In this document: piece by piece, positions 20,391 through 49,847 of the stretch
Numbering within the stretch: the stretch's first letter is position 1
How the letters are laid out: the number at the start of each line of letters is the position of its first letter
Source of the DNA: Alphaproteobacteria bacterium
Lineage (GTDB): Bacteria; Pseudomonadota; Alphaproteobacteria; UBA8366; GCA-2717185
NCBI GenBank assembly: GCA_040905865.1
Contig: JBBDQU010000005.1
Span: 105,368-169,367, forward strand
Length of the DNA stretch: 64,000 nucleotides
Reading direction: 5' to 3'
The notes under the pieces: generated by a model
Databases searched by the model: none
Told to the model about the DNA's origin: nothing
What the model saw: only the letters and a program-made list of their open reading frames with translations
Translations under genes and position numbers: made by a program

Positions 20391-20409
20391 GGCGGAATCC
20401 TGGTTCGGG

Positions 20410-31625: not shown

Positions 31626-32363
31626 ATGGCTACACTGACCGCGGAAGAACTGCAACAGGCGCGAATCGACATGGCGGCGGCGTTCCGCTGGGCGGTTCGC
31701 CACGGGTTGCACGAAGGCATCTGCAATCATTTCAGCCTCGCGGTCGGCGACGACCAGTTCCTGATCAACGGCTATGGCTGGCACTGGTCGGAAATTACCG
31801 CCTCCAGAATTGTCCTGGCGCATTACGATGGCGAAATCATCGAAGGGGACGGCGAGGTCGAGGCGACCGCGTTCTATATCCACAGCCGCATCCACCGCGC
31901 CTGTCCGCAGGCCACCTGCGTCATGCACACGCATATGCCCTACGCAACGGCGCTGACCCTCGTCGAAGGCGGCCGGATCGAACCGATCGAGCAGGGGGCG
32001 CTGCGGTTCCAGAACCACGTCGCCTATGACGATGAATATAACGGTCTGGCGCTGGATTTCGCCGAAGGCGACCGGATCGCGAAAAAGATGGGCAACAAAC
32101 GCGTGATGTTCATGGGCGCGCACGGGGTGACGGTTACGGGTTCGACCATCGCGCGGACCTATGACTGGCTCTATTACCTGGAACGCGCCTGCAAGGCGCA
32201 GGTGCTGGCCCGCTCAACGGGGTTGCCGCTGCGGCGCCTGCCGGACGAGGTGATCCAGGCCACCGTCGACCAGTTCGAAGGCTCGAATACCGACAGCGCG
32301 CCGCTGCATTTCGAGGCGCTGAAACGGGTGCTGGACCGGGACGAGCCCGACTACAGGGATTAG
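31626..32363 (+). CDS. class II aldolase/adducin family protein
   Basis: 245 aa, ..HGLHEGICNHFS..CVMHTHMPYATAL..MGAHGVTVTG... Second of three members of this family in the window. Confidence 0.8.
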   Translation: MATLTAEELQQARIDMAAAFRWAVRHGLHEGICNHFSLAVGDDQFLINGYGWHWSEITASRIVLAHYDGEIIEGDGEVEATAFYIHSRIHRACPQATCVMHTHMPYATALTLVEGGRIEPIEQGALRFQNHVAYDDEYNGLALDFAEGDRIAKKMGNKRVMFMGAHGVTVTGSTIARTYDWLYYLERACKAQVLARSTGLPLRRLPDEVIQATVDQFEGSNTDSAPLHFEALKRVLDRDEPDYRD

Positions 32364-34294: not shown

Positions 34295-34445
34295 GCCGTA
34301 TCAGCCGCACTTCAACATATCAGATTCGTGGTAACCAAACCATTAAGTCCCGGTTTCCAGGAGCAGCGCCAATTGCTTTCCCCGGCGGGGCAAACACGGT
34401 AACTTCAGTCTCAATCGGGATGCTCATCAGGAATATCGGATCGAC

Positions 34446-35378
34446 ATGGCCGCTCAGAATTCATTTCTCATAAATTCCTGGAACCATGGCAGAAACCCTA
34501 ATTCCGCCACTGATGTTTTCCGCTATCTGCGCAACGGTCTTTCGCTCGCGGGACAGACTGTCGGAGTCAGTCCGACGCTTTTCCACAATGCTGACCTCGT
34601 CAATATTCTGGTGGAGAATTTCAATATAAAGACGGCGGAAAACATTATTTCGATCAAGAAAAATGCCGGCATTCGCTTTGTGCTTGTGGCGACGGAACTG
34701 TTGACCGGTTCCAGCTTCAACGATGTTGGCAGCGATCAGTCCAATACGACCTATGCGGACCTGAACTACTGGCAGGAACGCTATACCGCTTTTGCAATGC
34801 TGGCGGAGTATGCGGAAGCAATCTGGCTGATGTCGGAATACCAGCGGCCCGGCTACGCCAAAAATTTTCCGAACACACAAATTCTGACGCTCCCGATGTG
34901 TTTCGATTCGATTGAAGCGGCGAATGGCGGCACCTTCCGCGCGCCGAAACTTTACGACGCGGTTTTCATGGGAACGCACACGAGTATTCGCATCGAAATG
35001 CTGGAGGAACTGAAAAAGCGCGTCCAGTTGTATACGCCTCATAATGTTCCTCCCTTCATGGTCAGTTCTGTCATCCAGTCGGCGCAGGTCTTCCTGCACC
35101 TGCATTTGAAGGAGGGGTGGCCCTTTACATCGATGATGCGGCACCATGTGGCGCTGACCTATGGCGCATACGTTATCAGCGAAAAATCGGAACTGCCCGG
35201 CGAACTGGATGGCTTCGTTGAAATCGTCCCGCGCGGTTCGTTTGCCGACGTCGTTCAGGAACGCGTCCTGGACAAATCGATTGTCCCCAGAGCCAGGGAG
35301 ATGCAGCGGCAATACGCCGCCAAGGGCGATCTCGGCGCGGAATTCCGGGTTCTCGTCGACGCGATGCCGTCGCCGTGA
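34446..35378 (+). CDS. hypothetical protein with glycosyltransferase-like (GT1_2/CgeB-type) C-terminal region
   Basis: 310 aa, lower GC. C-terminal ..DAVFMGTHTSIRIEMLEELKK...FLHLHLKEGWPFTSMMRHHVALTYGAYVISEKS..GFVEIVP.. resembles the C-terminal half of CgeB-like glycosyltransferases. This is a weak by-eye call. Confidence 0.55.
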   Translation: MAAQNSFLINSWNHGRNPNSATDVFRYLRNGLSLAGQTVGVSPTLFHNADLVNILVENFNIKTAENIISIKKNAGIRFVLVATELLTGSSFNDVGSDQSNTTYADLNYWQERYTAFAMLAEYAEAIWLMSEYQRPGYAKNFPNTQILTLPMCFDSIEAANGGTFRAPKLYDAVFMGTHTSIRIEMLEELKKRVQLYTPHNVPPFMVSSVIQSAQVFLHLHLKEGWPFTSMMRHHVALTYGAYVISEKSELPGELDGFVEIVPRGSFADVVQERVLDKSIVPRAREMQRQYAAKGDLGAEFRVLVDAMPSP

Positions 35379-35525
35379 TAGCGATTTACCGTTGCTGGAC
35401 ACGGCGGGCGATTGTCGGTCATCCTCTCGACAACTGTCGCCGATGCCTTGGTAAAATAGCGTGACAGTGTGTTTATCTGTATAGTGACAGAATGATTTCA
35501 GCCAGAGTCTGAGCCATTCGATAAT

Positions 35526-36458
35526 ATGAAAAACCCCGAGCTGTCATCACTAACGCCTCGCACTGCGACGTTAGGGCAAATTGAGGGTCTGGCGAATCAA
35601 TCATCCCCTGAATTGTCCTGTGAACTGTTCAGACTTATTTGCTTTTCGCGCGCATTCGAATGGCGTGTGAAGGCCGAAGCGGAACGGGGCAATGTCAATT
35701 GTTTGGTATACTTATCGCTGGGGCAGGAGAGTATCGCCGCCGGCGTCGCCGCCGCCCTGCGCGCTCAAAAGCCCTGGATCCTGGGCCAGCACCGGGCGCA
35801 TGCAACCTATCTCAGTTTCGGCGGCGCGCGGGTGCCGCTCGTCGATGAATTGCTGGGCCTGCCCGGCGGATGCTGCGGCGGCATGGCCGGGTCCCCGCCC
35901 ATCCACGATATCGCCAATCGAATCATCGGCCATGTGGGGCTGATCGGCGACCAGGTTCCGGTCGCCGCCGGCGTGGCGCTGACCAATCCCGGTGACCAGG
36001 TGATCTGTTTTTTCGGCGATGGCGCGGCGGAAGAGGACTATGTGCTTGCCGCTCTCGGATTCGCGGCCACCCGGCGGCTGAATATCCTGTTCGTCTGCGA
36101 GGATAACGACCTTTCGGTGCTGACGCCGACTTCTGTCCGGCGCAACTGGAATATTGCCGATGTCGCAACGTCGTTCGGGCTCGAATCCGTCGAGATCGCG
36201 GACGATCCCTGGCTGGTTTCATACTGGGCGGATCGGCTGAAGGGCCGGCCGGCGCTGATGAATGTCAAGACCTGCCGCGAAATCTGGCATGTCGGTACCG
36301 GCAATGACGGTCCGCCGGAATGGGACAGGTTTCAGCTGACGAGGGAAACCATGGCGCATATCGGGCTTGGCCGCAATGCGCGGAGCATTGAAGACAGAGC
36401 TACCGCAGAAATCGAGGAATTATGGGCGAAACGGTTGCAGATACAATCCGTGAGCTGA
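35526..36458 (+). CDS. thiamine-diphosphate-dependent E1 component, alpha-subunit-like
   Basis: TPP-binding motif FFGDGAAEEDYVLAALGFAATRRLNILFVCEDND (GDG...(E)DN). Confidence 0.85.
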   Translation: MKNPELSSLTPRTATLGQIEGLANQSSPELSCELFRLICFSRAFEWRVKAEAERGNVNCLVYLSLGQESIAAGVAAALRAQKPWILGQHRAHATYLSFGGARVPLVDELLGLPGGCCGGMAGSPPIHDIANRIIGHVGLIGDQVPVAAGVALTNPGDQVICFFGDGAAEEDYVLAALGFAATRRLNILFVCEDNDLSVLTPTSVRRNWNIADVATSFGLESVEIADDPWLVSYWADRLKGRPALMNVKTCREIWHVGTGNDGPPEWDRFQLTRETMAHIGLGRNARSIEDRATAEIEELWAKRLQIQSVS

Positions 36459-37327
36459 CGCGACGGCATATCGCTGAAAATAACGGTCTTGTCCTCGGTC
36501 AGTGCCTGTCGGCGGTCGGCTGGGTTCAGAATACCGTGCCGGAACAGGAAGCGGGTATCGAGGAACTGCCGATGACCGATACCGCCGGCGCGGGGATCGC
36601 GGTGGGAGCCGCGTTGACCGGGCGCAGGCCGATTTTCATCCTCCGGTTCCAGAGTCTGGTATGGCTGAACGCCAGTCCGCTCGTGAATCATGCCGCCCGT
36701 GTGAAAGCCATTTTCGGCTATGGTTGCCCGCTGTTCATCAGGGCTTCCGGCGATGAGGGGCATTCCATGGGCCCGGTGCATTCGGGCGCCCACCACGCGC
36801 CATTCATGTATGTTCCCGGATTGACCGTTGTCGCGCCCATGACTCCGGGAGAATACCGGGATATCTGGGCGCATTTCATGGCCCATGACGATCCCCTGTT
36901 CGTCAGCGAACACCGGCTCAGCTACAACAATACCGAGGAACTGCCGGACCGGATCGAGGATGGCGCCGATATCACCCTGTTTGCCGCCTCCGCGAGCCGG
37001 TTTTCCCTCGCGGAAGCGGCGGCGCGGCTGCGGGAGGATGGCATTCGGGTCAACATCGTCCATCTGGTCTGGCTGAAGCCGCTGAACGTGCCGGAAGCCG
37101 CCCTTGCCGCGCTGCGCGCCAGCGGCAATGGTCTGGTCCTCGATTCCGGGTTCGAAATCTGCGGTGCATCGCGCTCCATCGCCTATGAACTGACCCATCT
37201 GACAGGCGTCAGGGTCCACGCCCTCGCATTGGAAGACCGCCCGTCCGGGGTTGCAAAAAGGCTGGAGAACCTGTCGCCCCAGCCGGAACGAATTGTAAAG
37301 GAAGTCAGGAATATACTCGCTGAATGA
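36422..37327 (+). CDS. E1 component beta-subunit-like (transketolase pyrimidine-binding and C-terminal domains)
   Basis: ..IEELPMTDTAGAGIAVGAALTGRRPIFILRFQS.. GAGGAA lies upstream of the ATG. Overlaps the alpha-like gene by 37 nt. Confidence 0.8.
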   Translation: MGETVADTIRELTRRHIAENNGLVLGQCLSAVGWVQNTVPEQEAGIEELPMTDTAGAGIAVGAALTGRRPIFILRFQSLVWLNASPLVNHAARVKAIFGYGCPLFIRASGDEGHSMGPVHSGAHHAPFMYVPGLTVVAPMTPGEYRDIWAHFMAHDDPLFVSEHRLSYNNTEELPDRIEDGADITLFAASASRFSLAEAAARLREDGIRVNIVHLVWLKPLNVPEAALAALRASGNGLVLDSGFEICGASRSIAYELTHLTGVRVHALALEDRPSGVAKRLENLSPQPERIVKEVRNILAE

Positions 37328-38829
37328 ATGTATTGACTGACATCGATGTCGTCATGGTGACGCCGCCCAGCAGGCTCGCGGTGTATCAGGGCCTGTCGAA
37401 CGACCTGGCGGCCATCGAGCCGCCGGTCTGGTCGGGCTTGATCGCGGCGTACCTGCAACAGAGGAATTACAAGGTCGTCATGCTGGATGCGGAAGCCAGG
37501 GGGCTGAACCATGCGGACACGGCGGCAGAGATCGCCGCGTTGAAACCAGGGCTGGCGGTGTTCTGCATCTACGGGCAGCAGCCCTCGGCATCGACCCAGT
37601 GCATGCCGGGCGGCTCCATCACCTGCGCGCGCCTCAATGAAATTGCCGGCATCCCGAGCCTTGCGTTGGGAACCCATCCATCGGCGCTGCCGCGGCGTAC
37701 GTTGGAGGAGGAACCGTTTTCCTTCGTCTGTCAGGGCGAGGGGCCGCGCACGGTGGAGGCCCTGATCCGGGTGCTCCGGGACGGCGGCGACCTCGCGAAC
37801 GTGCCGGGTCTGTGGTACCGGGATGAAGCGGGGGCCATACACGGCAACAGGCCGGCGGCGAATATCGCGGATCTGGACAGTGAACTGCCGCGCCAGGCTT
37901 GGGACCTGCTGGATATGACGCAGTACCGGGCGCACAACTGGCATTGCTTCCATGACCTGGGCAGCCGCGGCAGCTACGCGTCGATCCAGACGAGCCTTGG
38001 ATGCCCCTTTCGCTGCGAATTCTGTTGTATCAACACGCCGTTTGGCGGCAACGGCGTCCGGAACTGGAGTCCCGAAAACGTCGTCGCGCAGATCGACGAA
38101 CTGGTCACCCGCTACGGGGTAAGGAACATCAAGATTCCCGACGAAATGTTCATCCTGAACCGGCGGCATGTGGCGGGAATCTGCGATGTCCTGATCGAAC
38201 GCGATTACGGCCTCAATATCTGGGCCTATGCGCGGATCGACACGTTGCGGGAATCGATGCTGGCGAAGCTGAAAGCGGCGGGCTTCAACTGGCTGGGGCT
38301 GGGCATCGAGTCCGCCAGTTCCTCCGTCCGTGACGGCATGGCCAAGGGAAGTTTTACCGATGACAATATCCGCGACGTTGTCCGCATGGTCCGCGATCAC
38401 GGAATCGCGGTCGGCGCGAATTACATCTTCGGCCTGCCCGACGATACAATGGACAGCATGAACGAAACGCTGGCGCTGGCGATCGAGCTGAATACGGAAT
38501 GGGCCAATTTCTATTGCGCGATGGCGTATCCGGGCTCCCCGCTTTACGAGGAAGCGAGGGCGAATAAATGGCCGCTTCCCGACGATCCGGGTGGGCCGGG
38601 CTGGATCGGTTATTCGCAGCTCGGTTACGACGCGATGCCGTTGCCGACCATGGCGCTAAGCGCCCGTCAGGTTCTTGAATTCCGCGACCATGCCTTCGAC
38701 CGGTACTTCACCAACCCGGCCTATCTGGCCATGCTGGAAGACAAATTCGGCTCCGAGGCGGTCGGCCACGTCAAACAGATGACGGCGCATCGGCTGAAAC
38801 GGCGCCTGCTCGAGACGCCGGCTGCCTGA
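37324..38829 (+). CDS. cobalamin-binding-domain radical SAM protein (class B), 501 aa
   Basis: B12-domain-like N-terminus (VVMVTPPS..PPVWSGLIAAYLQQRNYKVVMLDAE). CxxxCxxC motif GCPFRCEFCCIN. The ATGA overlaps the E1-beta-like stop. Confidence 0.88.
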   Translation: MNVLTDIDVVMVTPPSRLAVYQGLSNDLAAIEPPVWSGLIAAYLQQRNYKVVMLDAEARGLNHADTAAEIAALKPGLAVFCIYGQQPSASTQCMPGGSITCARLNEIAGIPSLALGTHPSALPRRTLEEEPFSFVCQGEGPRTVEALIRVLRDGGDLANVPGLWYRDEAGAIHGNRPAANIADLDSELPRQAWDLLDMTQYRAHNWHCFHDLGSRGSYASIQTSLGCPFRCEFCCINTPFGGNGVRNWSPENVVAQIDELVTRYGVRNIKIPDEMFILNRRHVAGICDVLIERDYGLNIWAYARIDTLRESMLAKLKAAGFNWLGLGIESASSSVRDGMAKGSFTDDNIRDVVRMVRDHGIAVGANYIFGLPDDTMDSMNETLALAIELNTEWANFYCAMAYPGSPLYEEARANKWPLPDDPGGPGWIGYSQLGYDAMPLPTMALSARQVLEFRDHAFDRYFTNPAYLAMLEDKFGSEAVGHVKQMTAHRLKRRLLETPAA

Positions 38830-38831
38830 TA

Positions 38832-39842
38832 TCAGTCCGCTGCCGCGGCGTCCGTTTCCGCCGAAATCCGCGCCCAGGTTTCCCGCAACCAGGTCGCACA
38901 GGCGACAGAGTGTTCGAACAGCGAGTATTTCGCGCCCATGCCGTAATCCGGCCCGGGAATGAATTCGGTGGAAATCTGGCCGAGCGGGCTGGTTTCGGCG
39001 GTGGCGTGATGGCGCATCAACTTGCGCATCACCTCTTTCCAGGGTTCCAGCTTTTCTTCGGACCAGTCGCTGTGCCACTCGCCGGGGGCGGGCCGGAAGA
39101 AGGGGTACTGGATGCCGCGGCCGATGCGGCCGTCCTCATGCTTGCCCCAGATGTTCTTCGGATTGTTCGGCACGGCGGCGCGGGCGTGGCAGTGCCAGAC
39201 ATAGCCGCGGCTGATCCATTCGTCGCAGACATTGCCGGGCTTGCCAGGATCGAGCACCACCTTGCCGGATTCCACATCGGGGCGCATATCGAGCATGTCC
39301 TGTTCGCCCGGATTGTCGATCTTGAAGATCACATGCGAATGATCCAGCGTCATGCGGTAGGGAATGCCCCGCGCCTCGACCAGTGCGGCGACTTCGCTGA
39401 CCCGTCCGTAATGCTCCGACCACATGTTTACATGCACTTCGAAGCACGGCAGGCAGCCGGCTTTCTCGCCGGTTTCATAGGCGCGCAGATAGGCCTCGGC
39501 AACTTCCTCGTTGCTGATCAGGTGTCCGTCCGCGTGGCGCATGGTGATCTGGGTGTTGTGGACCCGGCTGCCGAGTCGTGCGCCGAGCGCAATATTGGCG
39601 TCGAGCAGGGCTTCGTCCCGGCCCAGCGTATAGAACCAGCCGCCGGCACGGATCGGCAGGTCGTATTTCTCGCTCGCACGACGGTAATCGGCTTCTTCAG
39701 CGGCGGGCGGCGTCTTGTCGTAGTAATCGTAGACGCCGGATTCCTTGACCATGCGGAACCGTGTGTCGAGGTCGAATTCGAACTCGCCGCCCCGGTGGTT
39801 CACGCCCTTTTCGGTGATCCCGAATGCCAGTTTCCGCGCCAT
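38832..39842 (-). CDS. xylose-isomerase-like TIM-barrel protein (sugar phosphate isomerase/epimerase family)
   Basis: 336 aa. The family call is by overall resemblance (..FEVHVNMWSEHYGRVSEV..MTLDHSHVIF..) and is moderate only. Confidence 0.65.
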   Translation of the reverse strand: MARKLAFGITEKGVNHRGGEFEFDLDTRFRMVKESGVYDYYDKTPPAAEEADYRRASEKYDLPIRAGGWFYTLGRDEALLDANIALGARLGSRVHNTQITMRHADGHLISNEEVAEAYLRAYETGEKAGCLPCFEVHVNMWSEHYGRVSEVAALVEARGIPYRMTLDHSHVIFKIDNPGEQDMLDMRPDVESGKVVLDPGKPGNVCDEWISRGYVWHCHARAAVPNNPKNIWGKHEDGRIGRGIQYPFFRPAPGEWHSDWSEEKLEPWKEVMRKLMRHHATAETSPLGQISTEFIPGPDYGMGAKYSLFEHSVACATWLRETWARISAETDAAAAD

Positions 39843-40068: not shown

Positions 40069-41868
40069 ATGACGGACAGCAATGAGCTCAATGGCGGCCA
40101 GGTTATCATCGATTATCTGATCCGCGAGGATGTGCCCTATGTCTTCGGGCTTTGCGGGCACGGCAATATCGGGCTGATTGATGCGATGTACGAGCGGTCG
40201 GACGATATCAAGACTATCTCCGTCCATCATGAAAGCGTCTCCGGCTTCATGGCCGATGTCTATTACCGCGTCTCCGGCCAGGCGACCGCGACCTTCACCT
40301 CCTGCGGTCCCGGCTCGGCGAATATGCCGATCTGCCTCGCCAATGCCTTCTTCGATTCCGTGCCGTTCCTGGCGATCACCGGCAATGTGCCGACCAGCCA
40401 GTTCAACCGGGGCGCCTTCCAGGAAACCTACCGCCATTATCAGGCCGATTTTCCGTCCACCGTGCAGGCCTATTGCAAACGCGTCTACCAGCCGACCCGC
40501 GGCGAACAGGTGCCGCTGATGGTGCGGCAGGCCTGGAAGACGATGGTCACGGGCCGGCCCGGCCCGGTGGTGCTGGACGTGCCTTTCGATATCTTCAAGG
40601 AATCCGCCGCGGAAACCCCGGATCCGAAGGAATGGAGCGCGAATATCTCCTGCCGCTGCGGCGCCGATCCCGAAGGCGTCGAGAAAGCGGTCGATATGCT
40701 GCTGTCCGCCGAGAAGCCGGTGATCGTCGTGGGGCAGGGGGTGCGCTATGGCGGCGCCGCCGAGGAACTGAAGGCGCTGGCCGAACGGCTGCAGATTCCG
40801 GTGGCGTCCTCGGCGAGCGGCCTTGGCGCCCTGCCGGTCGAGCACCCGCTGTCGCTGGGCCTCGTACAGCGCGGCGGCACCTATCAGGCGAACCATTCCT
40901 GCCGTCAGGCCGATGTGCTGCTGGCGCTTGGCGTGCGCTTCGATGACCGGACGTCCAGTTCGTGGATACCGGGCTATTCCTTCACAATCCCGCCCTCCAA
41001 ACTGATCCATGTGGATATCGATCCGGAGGAAATCGGCCGCAACTATCCGGTCACCCTGGGGCTGATGGCGGATGTGCGCACCTTCCTGCGCCAGATTCTG
41101 GGCGAACTCGATCGGCGCGGATATTCCGGGGGACCGACTCCGGTGAGCCGGAAATGGCTGGCGGAGATCGATACCTACCGCGCCAAATGGGACGCCTTTA
41201 TTGCGCCGGGCTTCACCGATGATTCATCGCCCATCAATCCGCAGCGCGCGGCCGTGGAAATCGACAAGGCGCTGCCGGAAGACGCGATCCTGGTCAGCGA
41301 TATCGGTGTGCATCACAACTGGCTGCTGCAGTTCTGCAAACCGACCCGGCCGGATTCGCTGATCGGCTCCATGGGCTTTGGCCCGATGGGATTTGGCGTC
41401 GCCGGCGTGCTGGGCGCCAAACTGGCCGCGCCCGACCGGCCCGCCGTTTCGGTCTGTGGCGATGGCGCGTTCTTCATGCATGCGAACGTGCTCGGCACGG
41501 CGGTTGAGTACAATATCCCGGCCGTCTGGGTGGTCTGGAACAATTACGCCTATGGGTCGATCCGGGGGCTGCAGCGCGGCTATCTGGAAAGCCGCGAACT
41601 GGCGACCGATTTCCACCACCCGGAAACCGGCAAGCCCTACAATCCGGACTTTGCCGCCATGGCGCGGTCGGCGGGGGTCGAGGGCGTCAGCATCGACCGG
41701 GCGGGCGATCTGGGCGATGCGATCCAGGCCGCGATTGCCGCCAACAAACCCTTTCTGATCGACGCCAATATTAGCGGCGACCTGAATCCGCCGGGCGCGG
41801 GTGTGTGGGAACTGCCGGGGCTGGGCGTCAACAGGCCGGCGATCGGCGAGCGCTTCGTGCCGAAATAG
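40069..41868 (+). CDS. thiamine-diphosphate-binding enzyme of the acetolactate-synthase/IolD-like superfamily
   Basis: I prefer the start at ATG 40069 (MTDSNELNGGQVIIDYLIREDVPYVFGLCGHGNIG..). C-terminal TPP motif VCGDGAFFMHANVLGTAVEYNIPAVWVVWNN. Confidence 0.85.
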   Translation: MTDSNELNGGQVIIDYLIREDVPYVFGLCGHGNIGLIDAMYERSDDIKTISVHHESVSGFMADVYYRVSGQATATFTSCGPGSANMPICLANAFFDSVPFLAITGNVPTSQFNRGAFQETYRHYQADFPSTVQAYCKRVYQPTRGEQVPLMVRQAWKTMVTGRPGPVVLDVPFDIFKESAAETPDPKEWSANISCRCGADPEGVEKAVDMLLSAEKPVIVVGQGVRYGGAAEELKALAERLQIPVASSASGLGALPVEHPLSLGLVQRGGTYQANHSCRQADVLLALGVRFDDRTSSSWIPGYSFTIPPSKLIHVDIDPEEIGRNYPVTLGLMADVRTFLRQILGELDRRGYSGGPTPVSRKWLAEIDTYRAKWDAFIAPGFTDDSSPINPQRAAVEIDKALPEDAILVSDIGVHHNWLLQFCKPTRPDSLIGSMGFGPMGFGVAGVLGAKLAAPDRPAVSVCGDGAFFMHANVLGTAVEYNIPAVWVVWNNYAYGSIRGLQRGYLESRELATDFHHPETGKPYNPDFAAMARSAGVEGVSIDRAGDLGDAIQAAIAANKPFLIDANISGDLNPPGAGVWELPGLGVNRPAIGERFVPK

Positions 41869-41962
41869 CGCCGCTCCTGGTGCAAGCCGGCCGGATAATT
41901 TGACATCGGGACGGTGCGGGTTTTCTATTCGGATCACCGCAGTCGGCGAGGAAGAAGAGGCC

Positions 41963-42745
41963 ATGACCGTTCATCTGGTAACCAGGGGAAAATCCGTTCG
42001 CGATCAGGTCAGTCCGGAAGAATGGCAGGCGCGCGTAGAGCTGGCCGCCGGGCACCGGGTGCTGGCGCATTACGGCGTCAACGACATGACCTACAACCAT
42101 TTCGGACTGCGCGTGCCGGGCGAACCGGATCATATGCTGATCAAGCGCACGGACTGGATGTTTGCCGAAATCACCGCCTCGTCCTTCCTGAAGGTCGATT
42201 TCGCCGGCAATGTCATCCTCGATACCGATGTGAAACAGATCAAGGGCGGGGCGCTGATCATCCACGCGGGTCTGTTGAAGGCGCGACCGGACCTGAACGC
42301 GACTCTGCACACCCACACCATTGCCGGGATGGGCGTGGCCGCGCATAAATTCGGTCTGCTGCCGATCAACCAGCATGCGATGCGGTTCTGGGGTGAGTTG
42401 AAATACCACGAATTCGAAGGCTTCGAGTTCGACCACGACATGACGCCGAAACTGCTGCGCGATCTGGAAGGCGGCAGCCTGATGATGCTGCGCAACCACG
42501 GTGTGCTGGTCTGCGGCGAAAGCGTCGCCGAATGCGTCGTCAACCATCACTGGCTGGAAATGGCATGTCAGGGGCAGATCGCGGCCCTGTCGGCGGGCGA
42601 GGGCAATTACCTGGTGCCGGACAAGGCTGCCTGCGACTACGCCCACAGCCAGTTCAGGGACGGCGGCAATTTTCTGAAGGGGGGCAAGGACTGGGCCGCC
42701 TGCCTGCGGCTCGCCGAGCGCCTCGACCCCTCGTTCAAGGACTGA
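41963..42745 (+). CDS. class II aldolase/adducin family protein
   Basis: Start at ATG 41963 (MTVHLVTRGK..). ..ATLHTHTIAGMGVAA..LRNHGVLVCGESV... Confidence 0.8.
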   Translation: MTVHLVTRGKSVRDQVSPEEWQARVELAAGHRVLAHYGVNDMTYNHFGLRVPGEPDHMLIKRTDWMFAEITASSFLKVDFAGNVILDTDVKQIKGGALIIHAGLLKARPDLNATLHTHTIAGMGVAAHKFGLLPINQHAMRFWGELKYHEFEGFEFDHDMTPKLLRDLEGGSLMMLRNHGVLVCGESVAECVVNHHWLEMACQGQIAALSAGEGNYLVPDKAACDYAHSQFRDGGNFLKGGKDWAACLRLAERLDPSFKD

Positions 42746-42760
42746 CCCGGAGCGAACGCC

Positions 42761-44101
42761 ATGCGATTTGACGATGCCGCGCGGTATGTCATCGACGATC
42801 CGGACAGCGGGACCTTCAAGGTCCATCGGGACGTTTTCGGCGACGCGGCCCTGTTCGATCTGGAAATACGCCGGATATTCGAGGGCGGCTGGGTCTATGT
42901 CTGCCTGGAAAACCAGATCCCGGAACCGAACGATTTTTTCTGCACGAAAATCGGGCGCCGCTCCATCATCGTGTCCCGCGACGAGGATGGCGTGCTGCAC
43001 TGTTTCTACAATACCTGCCGCCACCGGGGCGCCGCGATCTGCCATGTGGAGCGCGGCAACAAGAAGTACCATGTCTGCGACTATCACGGCTGGGCCTATG
43101 ATTCCTCTGGGAAGAACTTCGACATCAAGGACCGCAAGGCGGGCGGCTATGCCAAATCTTTCGACGCCTGCGACCATGACCTGTTGCCCGTGGCGCGGTT
43201 CGACAGCTATGCGGGACTGCTGTTCGTCAGCCTGAATCCGAACGTGCCGTCACTGTCCGACTATCTGGGCGAGGCAAAACAGTTCCTTGATCTGGTCATG
43301 GACCAGGGTCGCGACGGGATGGAACTGGTGCCCGGCCGCACCAACTACACCTATGCCGGAAACTGGAAGCTGCAGCTCGACAACAGCCTCGATTTCTATC
43401 ACCTGACGTCGACCCATCGCAGCTTCGTCAATATCGTGAACCAGCGTGAAGCGGGCAAAAGCGCCAACCGGCAGGTGACCTCGCCGAATTTCCAGCGCCG
43501 TTTCGCCATGCCGGCCGGCATGTTCAACCTGGGCAACGGCCATGCGGTGATGTGGGCGGACCAGCCCAACCCGGAGACCCAGCCGCTCTGGGGCGAGATC
43601 GAGGAAGTGACGGCACGGGTCGGGGAGGTCCGGGCGAAATGGATGGTGCGGGCGCGCAATCTGACGATTTTCCCGAACCTGCAGATCGCGGATTCGACCT
43701 CGCTGGTGCTGCGCACGATCACCCCGCTCGCCGTCGACAAGACCGAGATGGTGATGTACAGCCTCGCGCCCGTCGGGGAGGCGGATGACCTGCGTTACAC
43801 CCGGATCCGGCAGCACGAGGATTTCTTCAATGTCTCCGGACTGGCGACGCCGGACGACACGATCGTGTATGAGGACTGTCAGGCCGGGTTTGTCAGCGCC
43901 GATGACGACTGGCTGCAATGCTTCGAACGCGGCATCACCGCCCTGCAACCCGGCGCCAACGAACACGCGCGGGAACTGGGCATTTCGCCGGTCGCCAGCA
44001 TGGTGGGTAAATACGCCATGCAGAACGAGGTGAGTTACCATTCCGCCTATCAGGAATGGGTGAAGCGGCTGTCCGGCGCCTTGCCGCTCGCCGCGGAGTG
44101 A
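42761..44101 (+). CDS. Rieske non-haem-iron oxygenase, alpha subunit
   Basis: Rieske motif CRHRGAAICH...CDYHGWAY. Mononuclear-iron motif DNSLDFYHLTSTH. Confidence 0.9.
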   Translation: MRFDDAARYVIDDPDSGTFKVHRDVFGDAALFDLEIRRIFEGGWVYVCLENQIPEPNDFFCTKIGRRSIIVSRDEDGVLHCFYNTCRHRGAAICHVERGNKKYHVCDYHGWAYDSSGKNFDIKDRKAGGYAKSFDACDHDLLPVARFDSYAGLLFVSLNPNVPSLSDYLGEAKQFLDLVMDQGRDGMELVPGRTNYTYAGNWKLQLDNSLDFYHLTSTHRSFVNIVNQREAGKSANRQVTSPNFQRRFAMPAGMFNLGNGHAVMWADQPNPETQPLWGEIEEVTARVGEVRAKWMVRARNLTIFPNLQIADSTSLVLRTITPLAVDKTEMVMYSLAPVGEADDLRYTRIRQHEDFFNVSGLATPDDTIVYEDCQAGFVSADDDWLQCFERGITALQPGANEHARELGISPVASMVGKYAMQNEVSYHSAYQEWVKRLSGALPLAAE

Positions 44102-44115
44102 CGGTTTTGGACCAG

Positions 44116-44610
44116 ATGGACCTGCTGCGCGCGGGCGCGGACCTGCTGGCGCGCGAGGCGCTGTATCTCGATGAGCGGCGCTGGGATGAATGGATCGCGC
44201 TGTACTGCGAGGATTGCGAGTTCTGGGCGCCAAGCTGGCTTAGCGAGGATACGCTTTCCGCCGACCCGGACCGGGAAATCTCGATGTTCTATTTCAGGGC
44301 CCGCGGCGGGCTGGAGGACCGGGTCTGGCGTATCCGGTCGGGGCAGGCGGCGGCGCTGACCCCGATGCCGCGCACATCGCACCAGGTCAGCAACATGGTT
44401 CTGGACGGTGCAGCGACCGGGTGCGCGATGACGGTAAAATCCGCCTTCGCCTGCCATGTCTATATGATCCGCAACAAGACCCAGCATGTCTTCTTCGGAC
44501 GCTACGAGCATGGCCTGGTAAGAATTGACGATGAATGGCGCATCAGGCGCAAGAAGATCACGCTGATGAACGATTTCGTGCCGTCGCTGCTGGATGTTTT
44601 CTGCGTCTGA
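44116..44610 (+). CDS. aromatic-ring-hydroxylating oxygenase beta subunit (SnoaL/NTF2-like)
   Basis: ..LLAREALYLDERRWDEWIALYCEDCEFWAP.. is typical of beta subunits. The alternative GTG start at 44098 would overlap the alpha stop as GTGA. Confidence 0.85.
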   Translation: MDLLRAGADLLAREALYLDERRWDEWIALYCEDCEFWAPSWLSEDTLSADPDREISMFYFRARGGLEDRVWRIRSGQAAALTPMPRTSHQVSNMVLDGAATGCAMTVKSAFACHVYMIRNKTQHVFFGRYEHGLVRIDDEWRIRRKKITLMNDFVPSLLDVFCV

Positions 44611-44638
44611 TACTTCTGTTATATGAACGTTATGGAAT

Positions 44639-45613
44639 ATGTTGTTGAAAGGATTCCGCATGACCGCATTGGATGATGCGCTGGATTTTGCCGCCGAGCA
44701 TGATACGCCGATCCCCTATCGGCAGCGGATCAGGGACTATTACCTGGCGCTGGGTTACGAAAAACCATACCGCTGGGCGAACTATGTCGATGTGCCGTTC
44801 ACGCCGCTGAAGAAGCCGCTGTCGGAATCGACCGTGGCCCTGGTGACGACGTCAGCGCCGTACCAGCCGGACAAGGGCGATCAGGGACCGGGCGCGGCCT
44901 ACAATTCCGCCGCCAAGTTCTATCGGGTCTATACCGACACGACGGATCATGTGCCGGATCAGCGGATTTCCCATATCGGCTATGACCGACTGCACACCAC
45001 TGCAGAAGACATGAACAGCTGGTTTCCGTTGGCGGCGCTGCACGATGCGGCGGCGGCCGGACGGATCGGCGCGGTGTCGAAGCGCTTCTACGGGGCGCCG
45101 ACCAACCGCAGCCAGAAGACAACGGTCGAACAGGACTGCGTCGAACTGCTGGAACGGATACGCGAGGACGGGGCCGATACGGCCGTCATTGTCGCTACCT
45201 GACCGGTGTGCCACCAGACCGTGAGTCTGGTTGCCCGCTACCTCGAAGAACACGGCATTCCCACCGTCATCATGGGCTGCGCCAAGGATATCGTCGAATT
45301 TGTCGGCGTGCCGCGTTTTCTGTTCAGCGACTTTCCGCTGGGCAATGCGGCGGGCAAGCCGAACGATCCGGCATCGCAGGCCGCGACGCTGGAACTGGCG
45401 CTGAAGGTGCTGGAGACCGCGCCCGGGCCGCGTACGACGGTTCAGTCGCCGCAGCGCTGGAGCAACGATCCGGACTGGAAGCTGGATTTCAGTAATCTGG
45501 AACGGATATCGCCCGAGGAACTTGAAAAGCGCCGCCGGGCGTTCGACGAACAGAAGGAAATCGCCCGCAGGAAACGGGAAGCCGAAGGCATCGGGAGCAA
45601 CGCAGCGGAGTAA
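44639..45613 (+). CDS. GrdB-family (glycine/sarcosine/betaine reductase component B-like) protein, probable selenoprotein with Sec encoded by TGA 45200-45202
   Basis: Track ORFs 44639-45202 and 45206-45613 are in the same frame and are separated only by TGA plus CCG. Read-through gives a 324-aa protein with ..GADTAVIVAT-U-PVCHQTVSLVARYLEEHGIPTVIMGC... There is no SD before the GTG at 45206. A hairpin follows the TGA (next feature). Confidence 0.7.
45210..45234 (+). other. putative bacterial SECIS-like hairpin
   Basis: It starts 8 nt after the UGA. Pairs 45213-45219 (ACCAGAC) with 45225-45231 (GTCTGGT), plus two outer pairs across one mismatch. The 5-nt apical loop CGUGA contains G-U and lies 18-22 nt after the UGA. 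Confidence 0.55.
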
Positions 45614-45623
45614 CCGGGTACCC

Positions 45624-46817
45624 ATGAGCAAACCATTCTCGGGCGTGAGGATCCTGGATTTTACCCAGGTCTTCGCCGGCCCGTTCAGCAGTTTCCAGCT
45701 TGCCCTGTTGGGGGCGGATGTCATCAAGGTCGAACGCCCGGAAGGCGAGGATTCCCGCTTTACCCCGCTCAGCAGGGAATGGGCGGATATGGGCATGGCG
45801 CCATCCTGGATGGCGGTCAACGCCAACAAGCGCAACCTGACCCTCGATCTGAAGCACCCGACAGCGGTGGAAATCGTCAAGCGGCTGGTCGCGGATGCCG
45901 ATGTGGTGATGGAAAATTTCCGCCCCGGCGTCATGGACCGGCTCGGTATCGGCTATGACGACCTGTCGAAGATCAATCCGCGGCTGATCTATTGCGGCGT
46001 CTCCGGATTTGGACGGGAAGGGCCGCAGAAAAACGCGCCCTCCTATGACGGCAAGATTCAGGCGCTCAGCGGCGTCATGTCGATTACCGGGCATGAAGGG
46101 GACGGGCCGCTGCGCGCGGGCTTCGCGGTCTGCGATGCGCTGACGGGCATGACGGCGGCCTTTGCCGTTTCCAGCGCGATCTACCAGCGCACCCACACGG
46201 GCAAGGGGCAGCTGGTCGATGTGGCGATGTTCGATTCAACGCTCAGCTTCCTGTCGCCGACGGTGGTCGATTACACGGTCGCGGGGCACCGGCAGCGCCA
46301 GTTCGGCAATCAGGCGATCAGCCGCAAGCCCACGGCCAACCTGTTCCGGGTGAAAAACGGGTACCTGCTGCTGGCTGTGAACAATGAGGGCCAGTACATC
46401 AAACTGGCCAACACCCTGAAACGGCCGGAACTTTATGAGGACGCGCGCTTCCGGGACTGGCCGTCACGGATCGAGAACGAGCCGGCCATGCGGGAAATCA
46501 TCGAGGACGCGCTGAGCGAGAACGACGCCCAGACCTGGGAGAAAATCCTGGAGGAGGGCGGCGCCCCCTGCGCCAGCGTCCGCACCATCGACGAAGCCGT
46601 CGCGCATCCGCAACTGGAATACCGCGACGTGCTCCAGACGGTCGACGGGCCGAAGGGGCCGATGACGATGATCGGGTCGGGCTTCAAGATGGCGCATGGC
46701 GGCGGCAGCATCGACCGCCCGCCGCCGACCATCGGCCAGCACACGGATGAAATTCTCGCCGACGCCGGCTACAGCGCCGAAGAGATCGCGAAGTTCCGCG
46801 CGGACAAGGTGCTGTAG
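45624..46817 (+). CDS. family III CoA-transferase (CaiB/BaiF)
   Basis: Start at ATG 45624. MSKPFSGVRILDFTQVFAGPFSSFQLALLGADVIKVERP is the classic N-terminus of this family. Confidence 0.9.
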   Translation: MSKPFSGVRILDFTQVFAGPFSSFQLALLGADVIKVERPEGEDSRFTPLSREWADMGMAPSWMAVNANKRNLTLDLKHPTAVEIVKRLVADADVVMENFRPGVMDRLGIGYDDLSKINPRLIYCGVSGFGREGPQKNAPSYDGKIQALSGVMSITGHEGDGPLRAGFAVCDALTGMTAAFAVSSAIYQRTHTGKGQLVDVAMFDSTLSFLSPTVVDYTVAGHRQRQFGNQAISRKPTANLFRVKNGYLLLAVNNEGQYIKLANTLKRPELYEDARFRDWPSRIENEPAMREIIEDALSENDAQTWEKILEEGGAPCASVRTIDEAVAHPQLEYRDVLQTVDGPKGPMTMIGSGFKMAHGGGSIDRPPPTIGQHTDEILADAGYSAEEIAKFRADKVL

Positions 46818-46882
46818 GGCTCGGGGCGGAAATTGTTGGCAAATTTTGTCAAATGGTATTCTCCGGTCAAGGAGATGGTATT

Positions 46883-47116
46883 ATGGCCACGATGAATGTT
46901 TCCCTGCCCGACCCGATGAAGCTGTGGGTGGAAGCGCAGGCGCAGACCGGACGCTACAGCAATGCGAGCGACTATGTCCGCGATCTGATCCGCCGGGACC
47001 AGGAACGCGCGGCGCAGATAGCACAGCTACAGTCCCTGATTACCGAAGGGCTGGAAAGTGGCGTCGCGGAGGATTTCAGCATGGAGGCGATCCAGGCGGA
47101 ACTCGATAGCGTCTAA
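46883..47116 (+). CDS. parD: type II antitoxin, ParD family
   Basis: The ATG at 46883 has AAGGAGA upstream. MATMNVSLPDPMKLWVEAQAQTGRYSNASDYVRDLIRRDQER (RHH/ParD pattern). Confidence 0.85.
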   Translation: MATMNVSLPDPMKLWVEAQAQTGRYSNASDYVRDLIRRDQERAAQIAQLQSLITEGLESGVAEDFSMEAIQAELDSV

Positions 47117-47413
47117 TGTCCGAGTTTCGTGTCAGCAGGCAGGCGCGAGACGATATCCGCGAAATCGGTCGTTATACGCAGGCGCTGTGGGGACGCGTGC
47201 AGCGCCGTATTTATCTATCCAACATGGAAATGCTGTTCCGGAATCTGGCCGGGAATCCGGAGATCGCCCCGGAGCGCCATGAGTTCGATCCACCTGTCCG
47301 GCTATGTCGGTATGGCAACCACCTGATCGTATATCGCTCAGAAAATGACCCGAATTCTGATCGTCAGGGTCCTGCACGAGCGGATGGATATTTCAGCGAT
47401 TCTTGGTGGCTAA
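47116..47413 (+). pseudogene. parE: ParE-family toxin gene with a +1 frameshift in a CCC run (47349-47351)
   Basis: The N-terminal 78 codons look like ParE (..RQARDDIREIGRYTQALWG...GNHLIVYRSEND). The expected C-terminus RILIVRVLHERMDISAILGG* is encoded in the +1 frame from 47351 to TAA 47411-47413. The frame in the track runs on to an unrelated tail. Confidence 0.75.
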
Positions 47414-47455: not shown

Positions 47456-48304
47456 TTACGGTTCGAACCGCCGGTTCAGTTCCGCGTTTGAAAAACTGTC
47501 CTTCGCATACCCGAATGTGCCGCCATCGCGCAGTTCTGCCGCCGCGTGCTGCACCAGTTTCAGGCAGGCGCGGGCGAGGCTGCCGCCGATGGAGACGCGG
47601 GCGACGCCGAGTTCCTGCAGTCGGGCCGTCGGCGGCGTAGTCGCCCCGGCGAGGATGTTGAGCGGCCCCTCGACCGCCTGCGCCAGCCGCCCGATCAGAT
47701 CCGCATCCGCGATGCCGGGGATATAGACACTGCGCGCGCCGGCGGCATAGCAGGCATTGCAGCGGGCGACGGCGTCTTCGAACATCGCACCTGTCCGTTC
47801 GCCGCCGGCGATCAGGTAGACGTCGACCCGGGCATTGATGACGAAGGGGATGTCCAGCGCATCCGCGACCTCGCGCCCCGCCCGGATGCGGTCCACGCAA
47901 AGCGCCGGATCCAGCAGGTGCGGTTTCGCGGTACCCACGTCATAGACGCCGTCCTCGATATTCGCGCCGATTGCGCCGGCGGCGATGGCCTGGCGCACGG
48001 TTTCGGCCACGTCGTCCGGCGTCTGCCCGTATCCGCCCTCCATATCCGCCGAAACGGGAATGGAAACCGCATCGGCGCATCGCTTTACCTCGGCGGCCAT
48101 TTCCGCGCGGCTGATCCGGTGCCCATCGGCGAAACCGCGTGAAAAGGCAATCCCGGCGCTGGTGGTGGCGATGGCGGGAAAGCCCGCTTCCGCCAGGATC
48201 AGCGCGCTGCCCGCATCCCAGCAATTGGGCAGGACGAGGATCTCCGGCGCGTGATGCAGGGTCAGGAAGGCCTCGGCTTTCGCTTTTTGCGCGATTTTGT
48301 CCAT
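47456..48304 (-). CDS. isocitrate lyase/PEP mutase superfamily protein (methylisocitrate-lyase/oxaloacetate-decarboxylase-like)
   Basis: Start at ATG 48304 with AGAGGGA upstream. ..LVLPNCWDAGSALILAEAGFPAIATTSAGIAFS.. and ..GANIEDG... Confidence 0.8.
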   Translation of the reverse strand: MDKIAQKAKAEAFLTLHHAPEILVLPNCWDAGSALILAEAGFPAIATTSAGIAFSRGFADGHRISRAEMAAEVKRCADAVSIPVSADMEGGYGQTPDDVAETVRQAIAAGAIGANIEDGVYDVGTAKPHLLDPALCVDRIRAGREVADALDIPFVINARVDVYLIAGGERTGAMFEDAVARCNACYAAGARSVYIPGIADADLIGRLAQAVEGPLNILAGATTPPTARLQELGVARVSIGGSLARACLKLVQHAAAELRDGGTFGYAKDSFSNAELNRRFEP

Positions 48305-48513
48305 GGGTTTCCCTCTTTGCTCCCTGTTTCGCAATACGGATCGGTTTGCCATAGTAACGGATCGGATACATGCCGCGAAAATGGAAACCGGATACAGCCC
48401 GTAACACTGGCTACAGGCAAAAGGATGGGCGTTGCTAAGACGGCGGCCGAAGCATTCGCGGCGCGGCACCGTTAAAGGATATATCCAGGAAACAAGGCAG
48501 AAAGGCGATTTTG

Positions 48514-48969
48514 ATGGCAGGCCTGTATTACGAAGAGTTCGAGATCGGGCATGTTTTCGAACATGCGATCACGCGAACGGTATCGGAGTACGATAATGTC
48601 CTGTTCAGCGCGCTGACGCACAACCCGCAACCGCTGCACCTGGATGAAGAGTTCGCGAAGAAAACCGAATTCGGGCAGCGGCTGGTCAACAGTCTGTATA
48701 CGCTGGGACTGATGATCGGCGTCTCGGTGGACGATACGACCCTGGGCACGACCATCGCCAATCTGGGTATGACCGATGTGAAATTTCCCAAGCCGGTATT
48801 TCACGGCGATACCCTGCGCGCCACCACCACGGTGATCGACAAGCGCGACAGTAAATCCCGGCCCAATGCCGGCGTCGTCGTCTTCGAACACCGGTCCTTC
48901 AACCAGCGTGACGAGGAAGTCGCTTTCTGCGTGCGCTCCGCCTTCATGAAGAAAAAGGAAGCCGCATGA
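48514..48969 (+). CDS. MaoC-like (R)-specific enoyl-CoA hydratase/dehydratase
   Basis: [44 protein letters not shown].. hotdog hydratase pattern. Confidence 0.85.
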
Positions 48970-49847
48970 CCCTGCGTTCAATGCTTTTCGTTCCCGGCGA
49001 CAGCGAACGGAAAATGGAAAAGGCGATCACCAACGAAGCCGATGCCCTGATCCTGGACCTGGAGGATTCGGTCTCGCCGGACCGTACGGCGGTGGCCCGG
49101 GGCATGGTGGCGGAGTACCTGTCCGCGCGCGCCGACCGGACGAAACAGCAGCTCTGGGTGCGGATCAATCCGCTGGACACGGACAAGGCAATGCCGGACC
49201 TCGCGGCGGTGATGACCGGCGCGCCGGACGGAATCGTCCTGCCGAAAACCTATTCGGCGAAGGATGCCGTGGCCCTGGCGAACGCCCTGTCGGCGCTGGA
49301 AGCCCGGGACGGTCTGGTGATCGGGTCGACGAGAATTCTGGCGGTAGCGACGGAAACCGCGAAATCGCTGTTCACGCTGAACACCTTTATCGGCGCGACC
49401 GACCGGCTGTATGGCATGACCTGGGGCGCGGAAGACCTGGCGGCGGCGCTCGGCGCCAGCAACAACCGGCTACCCGACGGCAGTTATGACGGCCCCTATC
49501 TGCTGGCCCGGACATTGTGCCTCGCCGCCTGCCGCGCGGCCGAGGTGATGCCGGTGGATACGGTCTTTACCGATTTCCGAAATATCGAGGGGCTGGAGGA
49601 AGAAGCGGGGCAGGCGCGGCGGTCCGGCTTCTTCGGCAAGATGGCGATCCATCCCGACCAGTCGGCGCCGATCAACCGGGCGTTTACGCCGACGGCGGAA
49701 GAAATCGCCCATGCGCAGCGTATCGTCGATGCCTTCGACCGGAACCCCGGGGCCGGTACGATCGGGATCGACGGCATGATGATCGATATGCCGCACCTGA
49801 AGCAGGCGCGCGCGGTGCTGGCGCTTGTGGCGTCGCTGAAGACCTGA
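48966..49847 (+). CDS. HpcH/HpaI aldolase / citrate-lyase-beta-like acyl-CoA lyase (CitE family)
   Basis: [33 protein letters not shown]... The ATGA overlaps the MaoC-like gene. Confidence 0.88.

Follow-up and report, generated by a model that had tools for sequence, protein, structure and literature searches.

What does a selenoprotein related to the Stickland reductases of anaerobes do between an oxygenase and a coenzyme A (CoA) transferase in an alphaproteobacterium? The question is raised by a stretch of 64,000 nucleotides, here called the window (GenBank assembly GCA_040905865.1, contig JBBDQU010000005.1, positions 105,368 to 169,367), whose nearest public relatives are marine alphaproteobacterial metagenome-assembled genomes (MAGs). 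On its plus strand, six open reading frames (ORFs) follow one another between positions 40069 and 46817, and an initial annotation, made from the letters alone, described them as one operon that joins a thiamine pyrophosphate (TPP) enzyme, an aldolase-fold protein, the two subunits of a Rieske oxygenase, a GrdB-like selenoprotein and a CoA-transferase. All six are present, intact and co-directional at the positions given there, with gaps, in order, of 94, 15, -4 to 14, 28 or 49, and 7 nt, nearly the same as the 95, 15, about 0-14, 28 and 10 nt noted before, and every family was confirmed by Pfam and NCBIfam profile searches. We propose, with a probability of about one half, that the selenoprotein and the CoA-transferase work together in reductive or nucleophilic catalysis by a U-x-x-C motif on acyl-CoA, and that in one clade this pair is set within a longer Rieske operon.

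The selenoprotein gene lies at 44660-45616 and encodes 318 amino acids of the PrdB/GrdB family (PF07355, TIGR04483), counted from ATG 44660, a likelier start than ATG 44639, with a Shine-Dalgarno sequence (GAAAGGA) upstream and with homologue alignments beginning there. Its frame contains a TGA at 45200-45202, which pairs with the invariant Cys of the motif N-C-P-V-C-H-Q in homologues, so that the window motif reads T-U-P-V-C-H-Q and the active site, numbered from ATG 44660, is Sec181-Pro-Val-Cys184, where U and Sec stand for selenocysteine; the nearest full-length homologues, at 65-75% identity, have Cys at this position. Related loci were taken from species-representative genomes by family motifs that exclude the TGA codon. 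Among the first 87 the codon is TGA in 48 and TGC or TGT in 39, and after de-duplication and the addition of loci L089-L091, which were derived through the Rieske genes, 50 Sec forms stand against 33 Cys forms (83 non-redundant loci). Both the U/C and the second Cys of U/C-x-x-C are invariant in every locus examined.

Downstream of the UGA, within the coding sequence, lies a hairpin (45210-45234) of the selenocysteine insertion sequence (SECIS) type. In a single-sequence fold it has an apical stem of 6-7 bp (45213/45214-45219 with 45225-45230/45231), starting 13-14 nt 3' of the UGA, and the loop CGUGA (45220-45224). All 47 distinct TGA loci share the same 15 nt, CAGACCGTGAGTCTG, at +15 to +29, four third-codon positions included, whereas these positions vary in the 33 Cys loci (entropy at most 1.8 bits), and in the alifold consensus the closing pair 14-30 covaries, being C-G in 33 sequences and U-A in 12. 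Codon changes 3' of the TGA are mostly synonymous (synonymous to non-synonymous 27:9 against L008 and 44:25 against L089, with similar ratios upstream), and the reading frame beyond the TGA is, as judged by these comparisons, under purifying selection. Gene callers split the gene at the TGA, as would suit a stop codon that leaves a pseudogene or two ORFs; conservation of the TGA in 50 loci, the SECIS-type hairpin and the purifying selection downstream all speak against such a stop. Because the TGA aligns with Cys, occurs in 50 of 83 loci and is followed by a hairpin that is invariant in TGA loci only and by a frame under purifying selection, the comparative evidence establishes a true selenoprotein gene.

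Is this selenoprotein, then, a subunit of a Stickland reductase? Its best NCBIfam match is PrdB (TIGR04483), at 103 bits against a cut-off of 300 (model positions 20-224). The scores with TIGR01917 (50 bits, cut-off 602) and TIGR01918 (52.8, cut-off 65.45) also fall short, and only the broad Pfam family PF07355 is passed (34.9, cut-off 22), over the C-terminal half of the GrdB model only. The label GrdB-like therefore holds in so far as PF07355 is matched, but PrdB is the closer model; judged by these profiles, the protein fails membership of the Stickland protein B families at the NCBIfam equivalog level. More than 8000 clusters of homologues, with Cys at the Sec position, are on record at 90% identity, and an exhaustive profile search showed the family to merge into essentially one at 50%. 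The PrdA, GrdE, GrdA, GrdC/D and PrdC families were found neither in the window nor in any Pfam-annotated related locus. For GrdA, GrdE, GrdC/D and PrdA, the window result refers to the about 45 ORFs scanned, a few short ORFs lying outside the scan, and the same scan, together with Rfam, gave no selA, selB, selC or selD within the 64 kb; the Rfam scan returned tRNA-Phe only and no match to a SECIS family. The earlier reading of the gene as a selenoprotein without its Stickland partners is thus borne out both by the TGA evidence and by the scanned ORFs.

Homology to PrdB and GrdB, and the names carried in databases, could still be taken to mean a true B subunit of D-proline, glycine or betaine reductase whose PrdA or GrdE and GrdA partners are encoded elsewhere. 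Against this, the annotated neighbourhoods contain no PrdA, GrdE or GrdA and show no further conserved neighbour cluster, the equivalog cut-offs are widely missed (103 versus 300; 50 versus 602), and the hosts are mostly aerobes. We consider it very improbable that the gene encodes such a subunit or that its TGA is a stop. Going by sequence and gene neighbourhood, the PrdB-like selenoprotein is probably not a proline or glycine reductase and probably acts on CoA-activated acids.

The partner that the selenoprotein gene does keep is the next gene of the window, which encodes a family III (CaiB/Frc-type) CoA-transferase of 397 amino acids (45624-46817). The domain is full length (PF02515, 397 bits, model positions 2-366 of 366); the nearest structures are SUGCT, Frc-like proteins and YfdE, and no NCBIfam equivalog cut-off is reached. 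Of the 83 non-redundant loci, 81 have room for a downstream neighbour, and in 55 of these a family III CoA-transferase gene begins on the same strand less than 600 nt beyond the selenoprotein gene; 40 of the transferases are orthologous to that of the window (at least 50% identity) and 15 belong to a second subtype (about 33% identity). By tblastn coordinates, the two genes are less than about 15 nt apart in about a dozen of the 55. A reciprocal probe of metagenome contigs gave the same partnership from the other side: a PrdB-like gene lies directly upstream of 16 of 17 transferase orthologues (at least 59% identity, with room) and in 0 of about 60 loci whose transferase is at most 48% identical.

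All-against-all clustering of the neighbouring ORFs revealed no other broadly conserved neighbour beside the CoA-transferase; apart from antisense shadow ORFs, the next commonest are short-chain dehydrogenases/reductases (SDRs) in 16 loci and TauD-family proteins in 13, both at variable positions. The exhaustive profile search also recovered three independent fusion proteins in which a PrdB-like domain with NCPVCHQ intact is combined with an AMP-binding acyl-CoA ligase: P0244, of 805 amino acids, and P0242 and P0243, which appear to be truncated at the N terminus, each with the C-terminal part of its ligase only. Of the loci without the transferase, L007, L024 and L057 have an AMP-ligase nearby, and L007 and L024 an enoyl-CoA hydratase as well. 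The transferase linkage, the reciprocal test, the ligase fusions and the nearby ligases tie the selenoprotein to the formation of CoA thioesters, and comparison of the loci supports, as a firm conclusion, that the PrdB-like selenoprotein and a dedicated family III CoA-transferase are a conserved two-gene module. This pair, in Sec and Cys forms, is widespread in Alphaproteobacteria and reaches a few other phyla, with Cys-form pairs in cultured Bradyrhizobium, Belnapia, Variovorax and Pelagibius. The CoA-transferase, which the initial annotation had counted as one member among six, emerges instead as the key conserved partner of the selenoprotein.

The second transferase subtype follows the selenoprotein gene in L009-L013, L020, L023, L026, L027, L029, L034, L037, L038, L086 and L087. 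In four of these loci, L009-L012, a tandem array of two to four TauD-family genes lies 6-10 kb upstream. Near some loci TauD-family genes recur, as do sulfatases, ComA and SsuA-type transporters; as clues to the substrate they hint at organosulfonate or quaternary-amine metabolism, a hint that we did not adopt because the linkage is loose and such families are common in these genomes.

How might the pair work? The CoA-transferase would turn a carboxylic acid into its CoA thioester, a role that a fused or nearby acyl-CoA ligase may fill in some relatives. The selenolate (or thiolate) would attack the carbon alpha to the thioester and expel a substituent; Cys184 would then attack the selenium, freeing a thioester-stabilised enolate and leaving a Se-S bond, which could be re-reduced by general cellular thiols of the thioredoxin or glutaredoxin type. 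In Stickland reductases activation is the task of the pyruvoyl group of PrdA or GrdE, and here the thioester would stand in for it. In the clade of the window, the product would go to an itaconate-type hydratase and lyase, yielding central metabolites, and the earlier steps, on an aromatic or alicyclic carboxylate, would fall to the Rieske dioxygenase, the aldolase-fold protein and, elsewhere, an SDR, much as in the Ben and Pht pathways. A mechanism on acyl-CoA is the most economical one, since U/C-x-x-C is invariant, the pyruvoyl partner is missing and the gene is coupled to thioester-forming enzymes.

Several observations weigh against this proposal. The substrate and even the reaction class of the selenoprotein are inferred, and the AlphaFold model (pLDDT 77) gave no informative structural relative, which leaves a CoA-binding site without structural support. 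About 40% of the family members have Cys where the U151C variant of PrdB is inactive (PMC11229817), so the chemistry may be less demanding than Stickland cleavage or different from it. No gene for a reductant is encoded near the selenoprotein gene, and 23 of the 81 loci have no adjacent transferase. One orthologous transferase with room upstream (L096 4051-5241, 75% identity) has no PrdB-like gene there. The SDR gene kept by the relatives of the window is missing from this strain, whose pathway may therefore be incomplete. Promoter and terminator predictions in the region occur at chance level.

In L096 an enoyl-CoA hydratase gene lies just downstream of the transferase on the other strand, and the 4 kb upstream have no recognisable domain. 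A long ORF that seems fused to this transferase was discarded as a candidate: its N-terminal part is domain-free, and the ORF is probably an open-frame artefact.

A bolder version would make the "PrdB" proteins of oxic ocean and soil a new class of thioester-dependent seleno/thiol enzymes that carry out two-electron reductive cleavage at C-alpha of acyl-CoA in aerobes, with a CoA-transferase or ligase replacing the pyruvoyl subunit and, in this clade, with the module built into an oxygenase-initiated catabolic operon. We offer it tentatively, as a possible generalisation that we hold to be doubtful at present.

The genes downstream of the transferase bring in another reading of the selenoprotein. 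A MaoC-type (R)-enoyl-CoA hydratase (48511-48969, plus strand) has as its best NCBIfam match the itaconyl-CoA hydratase RipB/Ich (NF038241, 137 bits, cut-off 340), and the overlapping gene for an HpcH/CitE-type acyl-CoA C-C lyase (48966-49847, plus strand) is nearest to the citramalyl-CoA lyase RipC/Ccl (NF038242, 184 bits, cut-off 375). The MaoC and CitE genes are contiguous in L089, L090 and L094, and in L089 the MaoC gene comes directly after the CoA-transferase, followed by the CitE/HpcH lyase. In L090, L094 and the window, a minus-strand gene of the phosphoenolpyruvate (PEP) mutase/isocitrate lyase superfamily parts them from the transferase; in the window it lies at 47456-48304 (PF13714, 264 bits; 282 amino acids as called in L088, with an open frame extending to 48469), and it has the same position in L090 and L094. 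A further item sits between transferase and MaoC gene in two cases, an insertion sequence (IS) element in L090 and a small ParD-antitoxin-like ORF in the window (46853-47116, plus strand; PF03693). The ParD-like ORF is absent from this place in L089 and L090, which marks it as a strain-specific insert, and it has no evident toxin gene; the sole decent terminator-like hairpin of the region (47181-47206) lies beyond it. The initial annotation had read the chemistry of the locus as degradation of cyclitols or carbocycles, a reading that has no support; the downstream partners are these itaconate-type MaoC and CitE enzymes.

With such enzymes downstream, the selenoprotein might instead be a non-reductive Sec/Cys isomerase, cis-trans or double-bond-shifting, that works in the manner of maleate or maleylpyruvate isomerase on an unsaturated dicarboxyl-CoA (itaconyl-, mesaconyl-, citraconyl- or maleyl-CoA) and feeds the MaoC and CitE enzymes. 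The nearest downstream partners in the clade are indeed Ich- and Ccl-like, enoyl-CoA hydratases recur near other members, no reductant is encoded, and frequent Cys forms fit a less demanding chemistry. Both residues of U/C-x-x-C are invariant, however, as expected of a redox couple and unneeded for isomerisation by a single nucleophile; selenocysteine is nearly always found in redox sites (general knowledge; PMC1794560); and outside this clade the pair does not have the MaoC and CitE genes as conserved neighbours. We regard the isomerase as a serious rival, if an unlikely one, to reductive or nucleophilic catalysis by U-x-x-C on acyl-CoA.

How far does the link to the Rieske oxygenase extend? 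Upstream of the selenoprotein gene, the window encodes a class II aldolase/adducin-family protein of 260 amino acids (41963-42745), a Rieske oxygenase alpha subunit of 446 amino acids (42761-44101) and its beta subunit (44107-44610; Ring_hydroxyl_B, PF00866, 131 bits), whose start is ambiguous between GTG 44098, TTG 44107 and ATG 44116 in the sequence of the alpha/beta junction. The alpha subunit has the Rieske and Ring_hydroxyl_A domains (PF00355, PF00848) and the motifs CxH...CxxH and DxxHxxxxH in its translation; it belongs with the BenA/AntA group and stays below the cut-offs of both (BenA 418.7 bits versus 780.95; AntA 330 versus 672). The aldolase-fold protein matches PF00596 (117 bits) and passes NF005451 (241 bits, cut-off 207), its nearest structure, 3ocr, has no assigned function, and with the model of the PhtC decarboxylase it scores 38.6 bits (cut-off 200). 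As the initial annotation had noted, no electron-transfer partner is linked to the oxygenase: neither a ferredoxin nor a reductase gene was found among the window ORFs scanned, nor within 10 kb in L089-L092.

Rieske and aldolase genes accompany the selenoprotein in only 2 of the 76 non-redundant loci reached through the selenoprotein itself (L008 and L016), and the family-wide linkage of GrdB-like genes to Rieske or TPP genes, on which the initial annotation had staked its case, is for the largest part not seen. Four further contigs, L089, L090, L094 and L109, came from searches that started from the Rieske alpha subunit or from the transferase. In all six contigs the order is aldolase-fold gene, Rieske alpha, Rieske beta, selenoprotein, transferase, the selenoprotein is always in the Sec form, and the order persists, with short gaps, where protein identity has fallen to about 71-76%. 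All six other contigs whose sequence extends upstream of the aldolase gene (L008, L016, L089, L090, L091 and L094) have a divergent SDR gene; five of them hold the full operon, and the sixth, L091, has the SDR, aldolase and Rieske alpha/beta genes without the selenoprotein (about 65% Rieske identity). L092 has Rieske alpha/beta alone. On these comparisons, the linkage of Rieske and aldolase genes to the selenoprotein-transferase pair is limited to one marine alphaproteobacterial clade, and the two modules are separable, as L091 shows with its Rieske alpha/beta genes and no selenoprotein.

Separable modules might also be functionally independent, merely packed into one transcription unit. Such an arrangement would agree with Rieske genes that lack the selenoprotein in L091 and L092, with the pair standing without Rieske genes in more than 70 loci, and with a region prone to rearrangement, as its deletion, IS element and ParD and PEP-mutase inserts attest. 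A five-gene order kept with short gaps in six other contigs would be unexpected without selection for co-expression, and we think it rather unlikely that the two modules have nothing to do with each other.

Paralogous BenA-like Rieske alpha/beta pairs, at 56-66% identity, lie in L092 (1-11829) and L093 (2421-18287), amid genes of the PEP-mutase, MmgE/PrpD and TauD families and genes for ComA, a citrate-synthase-like protein and a TPP enzyme. These contexts suggest that the wider Rieske group is tied to organic-acid, possibly organosulfur, metabolism. The aldolase-fold protein, for its part, is one of three class II aldolase/adducin-fold paralogues within 22 kb (20410-21045, 31626-32363 and 41963-42745), that at 31626-32363 adjoining purB, as in L090.

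Does the first of the six genes belong to the operon as well? It encodes a TPP enzyme of 599 amino acids (40069-41868, plus strand) with three Pfam TPP domains and is followed by an intergenic region at 41869-41962. Comparison with L008 by blastn and MAFFT showed that the window matches this contig up to the stop codon of the TPP gene and that the match resumes about 85 nt before the aldolase gene. The stretch in between is 1.23 kb long in L008 (437-1666), where it carries a gene for a 128-aa cupin and the minus-strand SDR gene, and 10 nt long in the window (41869-41878), the deletion junction. In L089 the TPP orthologue (93% identity) is 6 kb upstream, on the far side of genes for a protease and a two-component system; L092 has its orthologue (90% identity) in another cluster, where the Rieske pair is a paralogous one and no selenoprotein gene occurs. 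Sequence alignment thus identifies the adjacency of the TPP gene as a recent, strain-specific juxtaposition: the 1.2 kb deletion brought it directly upstream of the aldolase gene, whence the six-gene appearance. Across the contigs compared it is a recurrent neighbour, not part of the operon core.

The enzyme itself is below every NCBIfam cut-off, with acetolactate synthase (ALS) as its best model (398 bits versus 538) and BbmA as its best PDB match (270 bits); ALS and BbmA score 246-270 bits against 184 for cyclohexane-1,2-dione hydrolase, and IolD is outside the top 25 NCBIfam matches, so that the IolD-like label once given to it yields to an ALS/BbmA-like one. An oxalate pair of Oxc and Frc, considered for the TPP enzyme and the CoA-transferase, was rejected, the TPP enzyme being ALS-like and non-core.

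If all six genes and a neighbour once labelled a TIM barrel were instead one ancestral operon for cyclitols or carbocycles, with reductive C-X cleavage of the GrdB type, their shared direction and tight spacing in the window would follow, and a TPP orthologue does lie less than 10 kb from related Rieske genes in L008, L089 and L092. Against this, the adjacency of the TPP gene stems from the 1.2 kb deletion. TPP and aldolase genes are parted by the minus-strand SDR in L008 and by five genes in L089, no TPP orthologue was found upstream in L090 (about 10 kb searched) or L094 (about 3 kb), and the TPP enzyme scores higher to ALS and BbmA than to cyclohexanedione hydrolase. The 336-aa neighbour, at 38832-39842, is on the other strand and has no Pfam, NCBIfam or PDB sequence match, which leaves its TIM-barrel label unconfirmed. 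We judge such an ancestral operon to be improbable. The claim of one operon therefore holds from the aldolase to the CoA-transferase, as conserved in six other contigs, and fails for the TPP gene; of the proposed undescribed aerobic route, an undescribed function of the selenoprotein in aerobes is plausible, and the six-gene version is not supported.

The window is chromosomal, with the genes for RNase G, purL, purB, rpsD and groEL present and with a purB-aldolase synteny common to L090. Between the purB-aldolase genes and the TPP gene lies a separate cluster (32360-39842). Two of its genes, at 32360-34294 (minus strand) and 37324-38829 (plus strand), encode B12-binding radical SAM proteins, two more (35526-36458 and 36422-37327) form a split E1/transketolase-like TPP pair, and two encode proteins without a detectable family (34446-35378, plus strand, and the 336-aa protein at 38832-39842). 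L090 has different genes at this place, and the cluster has the look of an insert with a biosynthetic or modifying role. Farther upstream, at 19602-22319, three consecutive minus-strand genes encode a xylose-isomerase-like TIM barrel protein, a protein of the class II aldolase fold and a DUF1537-type (SBD_N/NBD_C) kinase, a set which resembles the known catabolic genes for four-carbon acid sugars (threonate/erythronate).

What is new here has to be set beside what was already known. In the Sargasso Sea, "Proline reductase PrdB" (pfam07355, UxxC) was the third most abundant known selenoprotein family, with 42 genes (PMC1088965), and the Global Ocean Sampling (GOS) set held 235 Sec and 110 Cys forms of PrdB in the oxic surface ocean (PMC2398784). 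Matched by description rather than by direct sequence comparison, this ocean "PrdB" is very likely the family of the window, whose status as a selenoprotein family is accordingly known and not new. The ocean surveys of Zhang and Gladyshev counted and named it by homology only and gave no partner, operon or function beyond "proline reductase" (PMC1088965, PMC2398784); recent reviews discuss PrdB and GrdB solely as parts of Stickland metabolism (PMC9312934, PMC13188914). In the literature searched we found no functional study of the ocean family, nor, in full text, any link of PrdB/GrdB-like proteins to CoA-transferases or Rieske oxygenases. New are the failure of Stickland membership, the near-obligate partnership with a transferase or ligase and the oxygenase-containing operon of this clade. 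They provide a first concrete, testable functional hypothesis for a family listed from 2005 onwards with the most abundant of surface-ocean selenoproteins, suggest one benefit that selenocysteine may bring to aerobic marine bacteria, and point to a probably widespread misannotation, databases naming these proteins proline or glycine reductases. Because Cys-form pairs exist in cultured hosts, experiments are feasible without selenoprotein expression.

Among known systems, the D-proline reductase subunit PrdB and the subunits GrdB, GrdF and GrdH of Stickland anaerobes are the closest to the selenoprotein, which is homologous over the whole length of PrdB, has its Sec in U-x-x-C at the equivalent position and has the UGA and hairpin inside the coding sequence. 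The D-proline on which PrdB acts is carried by the pyruvoyl group of PrdA, and its C-alpha is the atom that the Sec attacks (PMC11229817). The window family differs in having no pyruvoyl proprotein partner (PrdA/GrdE), GrdA, GrdC/D or PrdC, in its conserved partner, which is a family III CoA-transferase or an acyl-CoA ligase, and in its hosts, mainly aerobic Alphaproteobacteria as against Stickland-fermenting anaerobes. Natural Cys members (about 40%) contrast with the inactivity of PrdB U151C (PMC11229817), and relative to PrdB the window protein is longer by about 50 aa at the N terminus and by a helical extension of about 55 aa at the C terminus. Cleavage of other C-alpha-X bonds, such as C-F, has been proposed for GrdB-family proteins (PMC10838667), and the proposed fluoroacetate reductase FarB/FarE of Cloacibacillus (PMC10838667) is likewise a case of the GrdB family recruited for C-alpha-X cleavage other than C-N; FarB, however, retains a GrdE-type partner and feeds GrdA and GrdC/D in an anaerobe, none of which the window family has.

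The other parts of the locus recall other systems. The Ict-Ich-Ccl (RipABC) itaconate module likewise groups a CoA-transferase with a hydratase of the MaoC type and a lyase of the CitE/HpcH type; the window set misses its equivalog cut-offs and has the selenoprotein gene directly upstream of the transferase. The alpha/beta Rieske oxygenase is nearest to BenA/AntA and so recalls BenAB/AntAB with BenD, and the trio of dioxygenase, SDR and aldolase-fold protein seen in relatives of the window is that of the Pht route (PhtAaAb, the dehydrogenase PhtB and the decarboxylase PhtC). Unlike the Ben and Pht systems, the operon of the window has no linked reductase or ferredoxin and no ring-cleavage dioxygenase, misses the equivalog cut-offs, has lost the SDR in this strain and is joined to a selenoprotein module.

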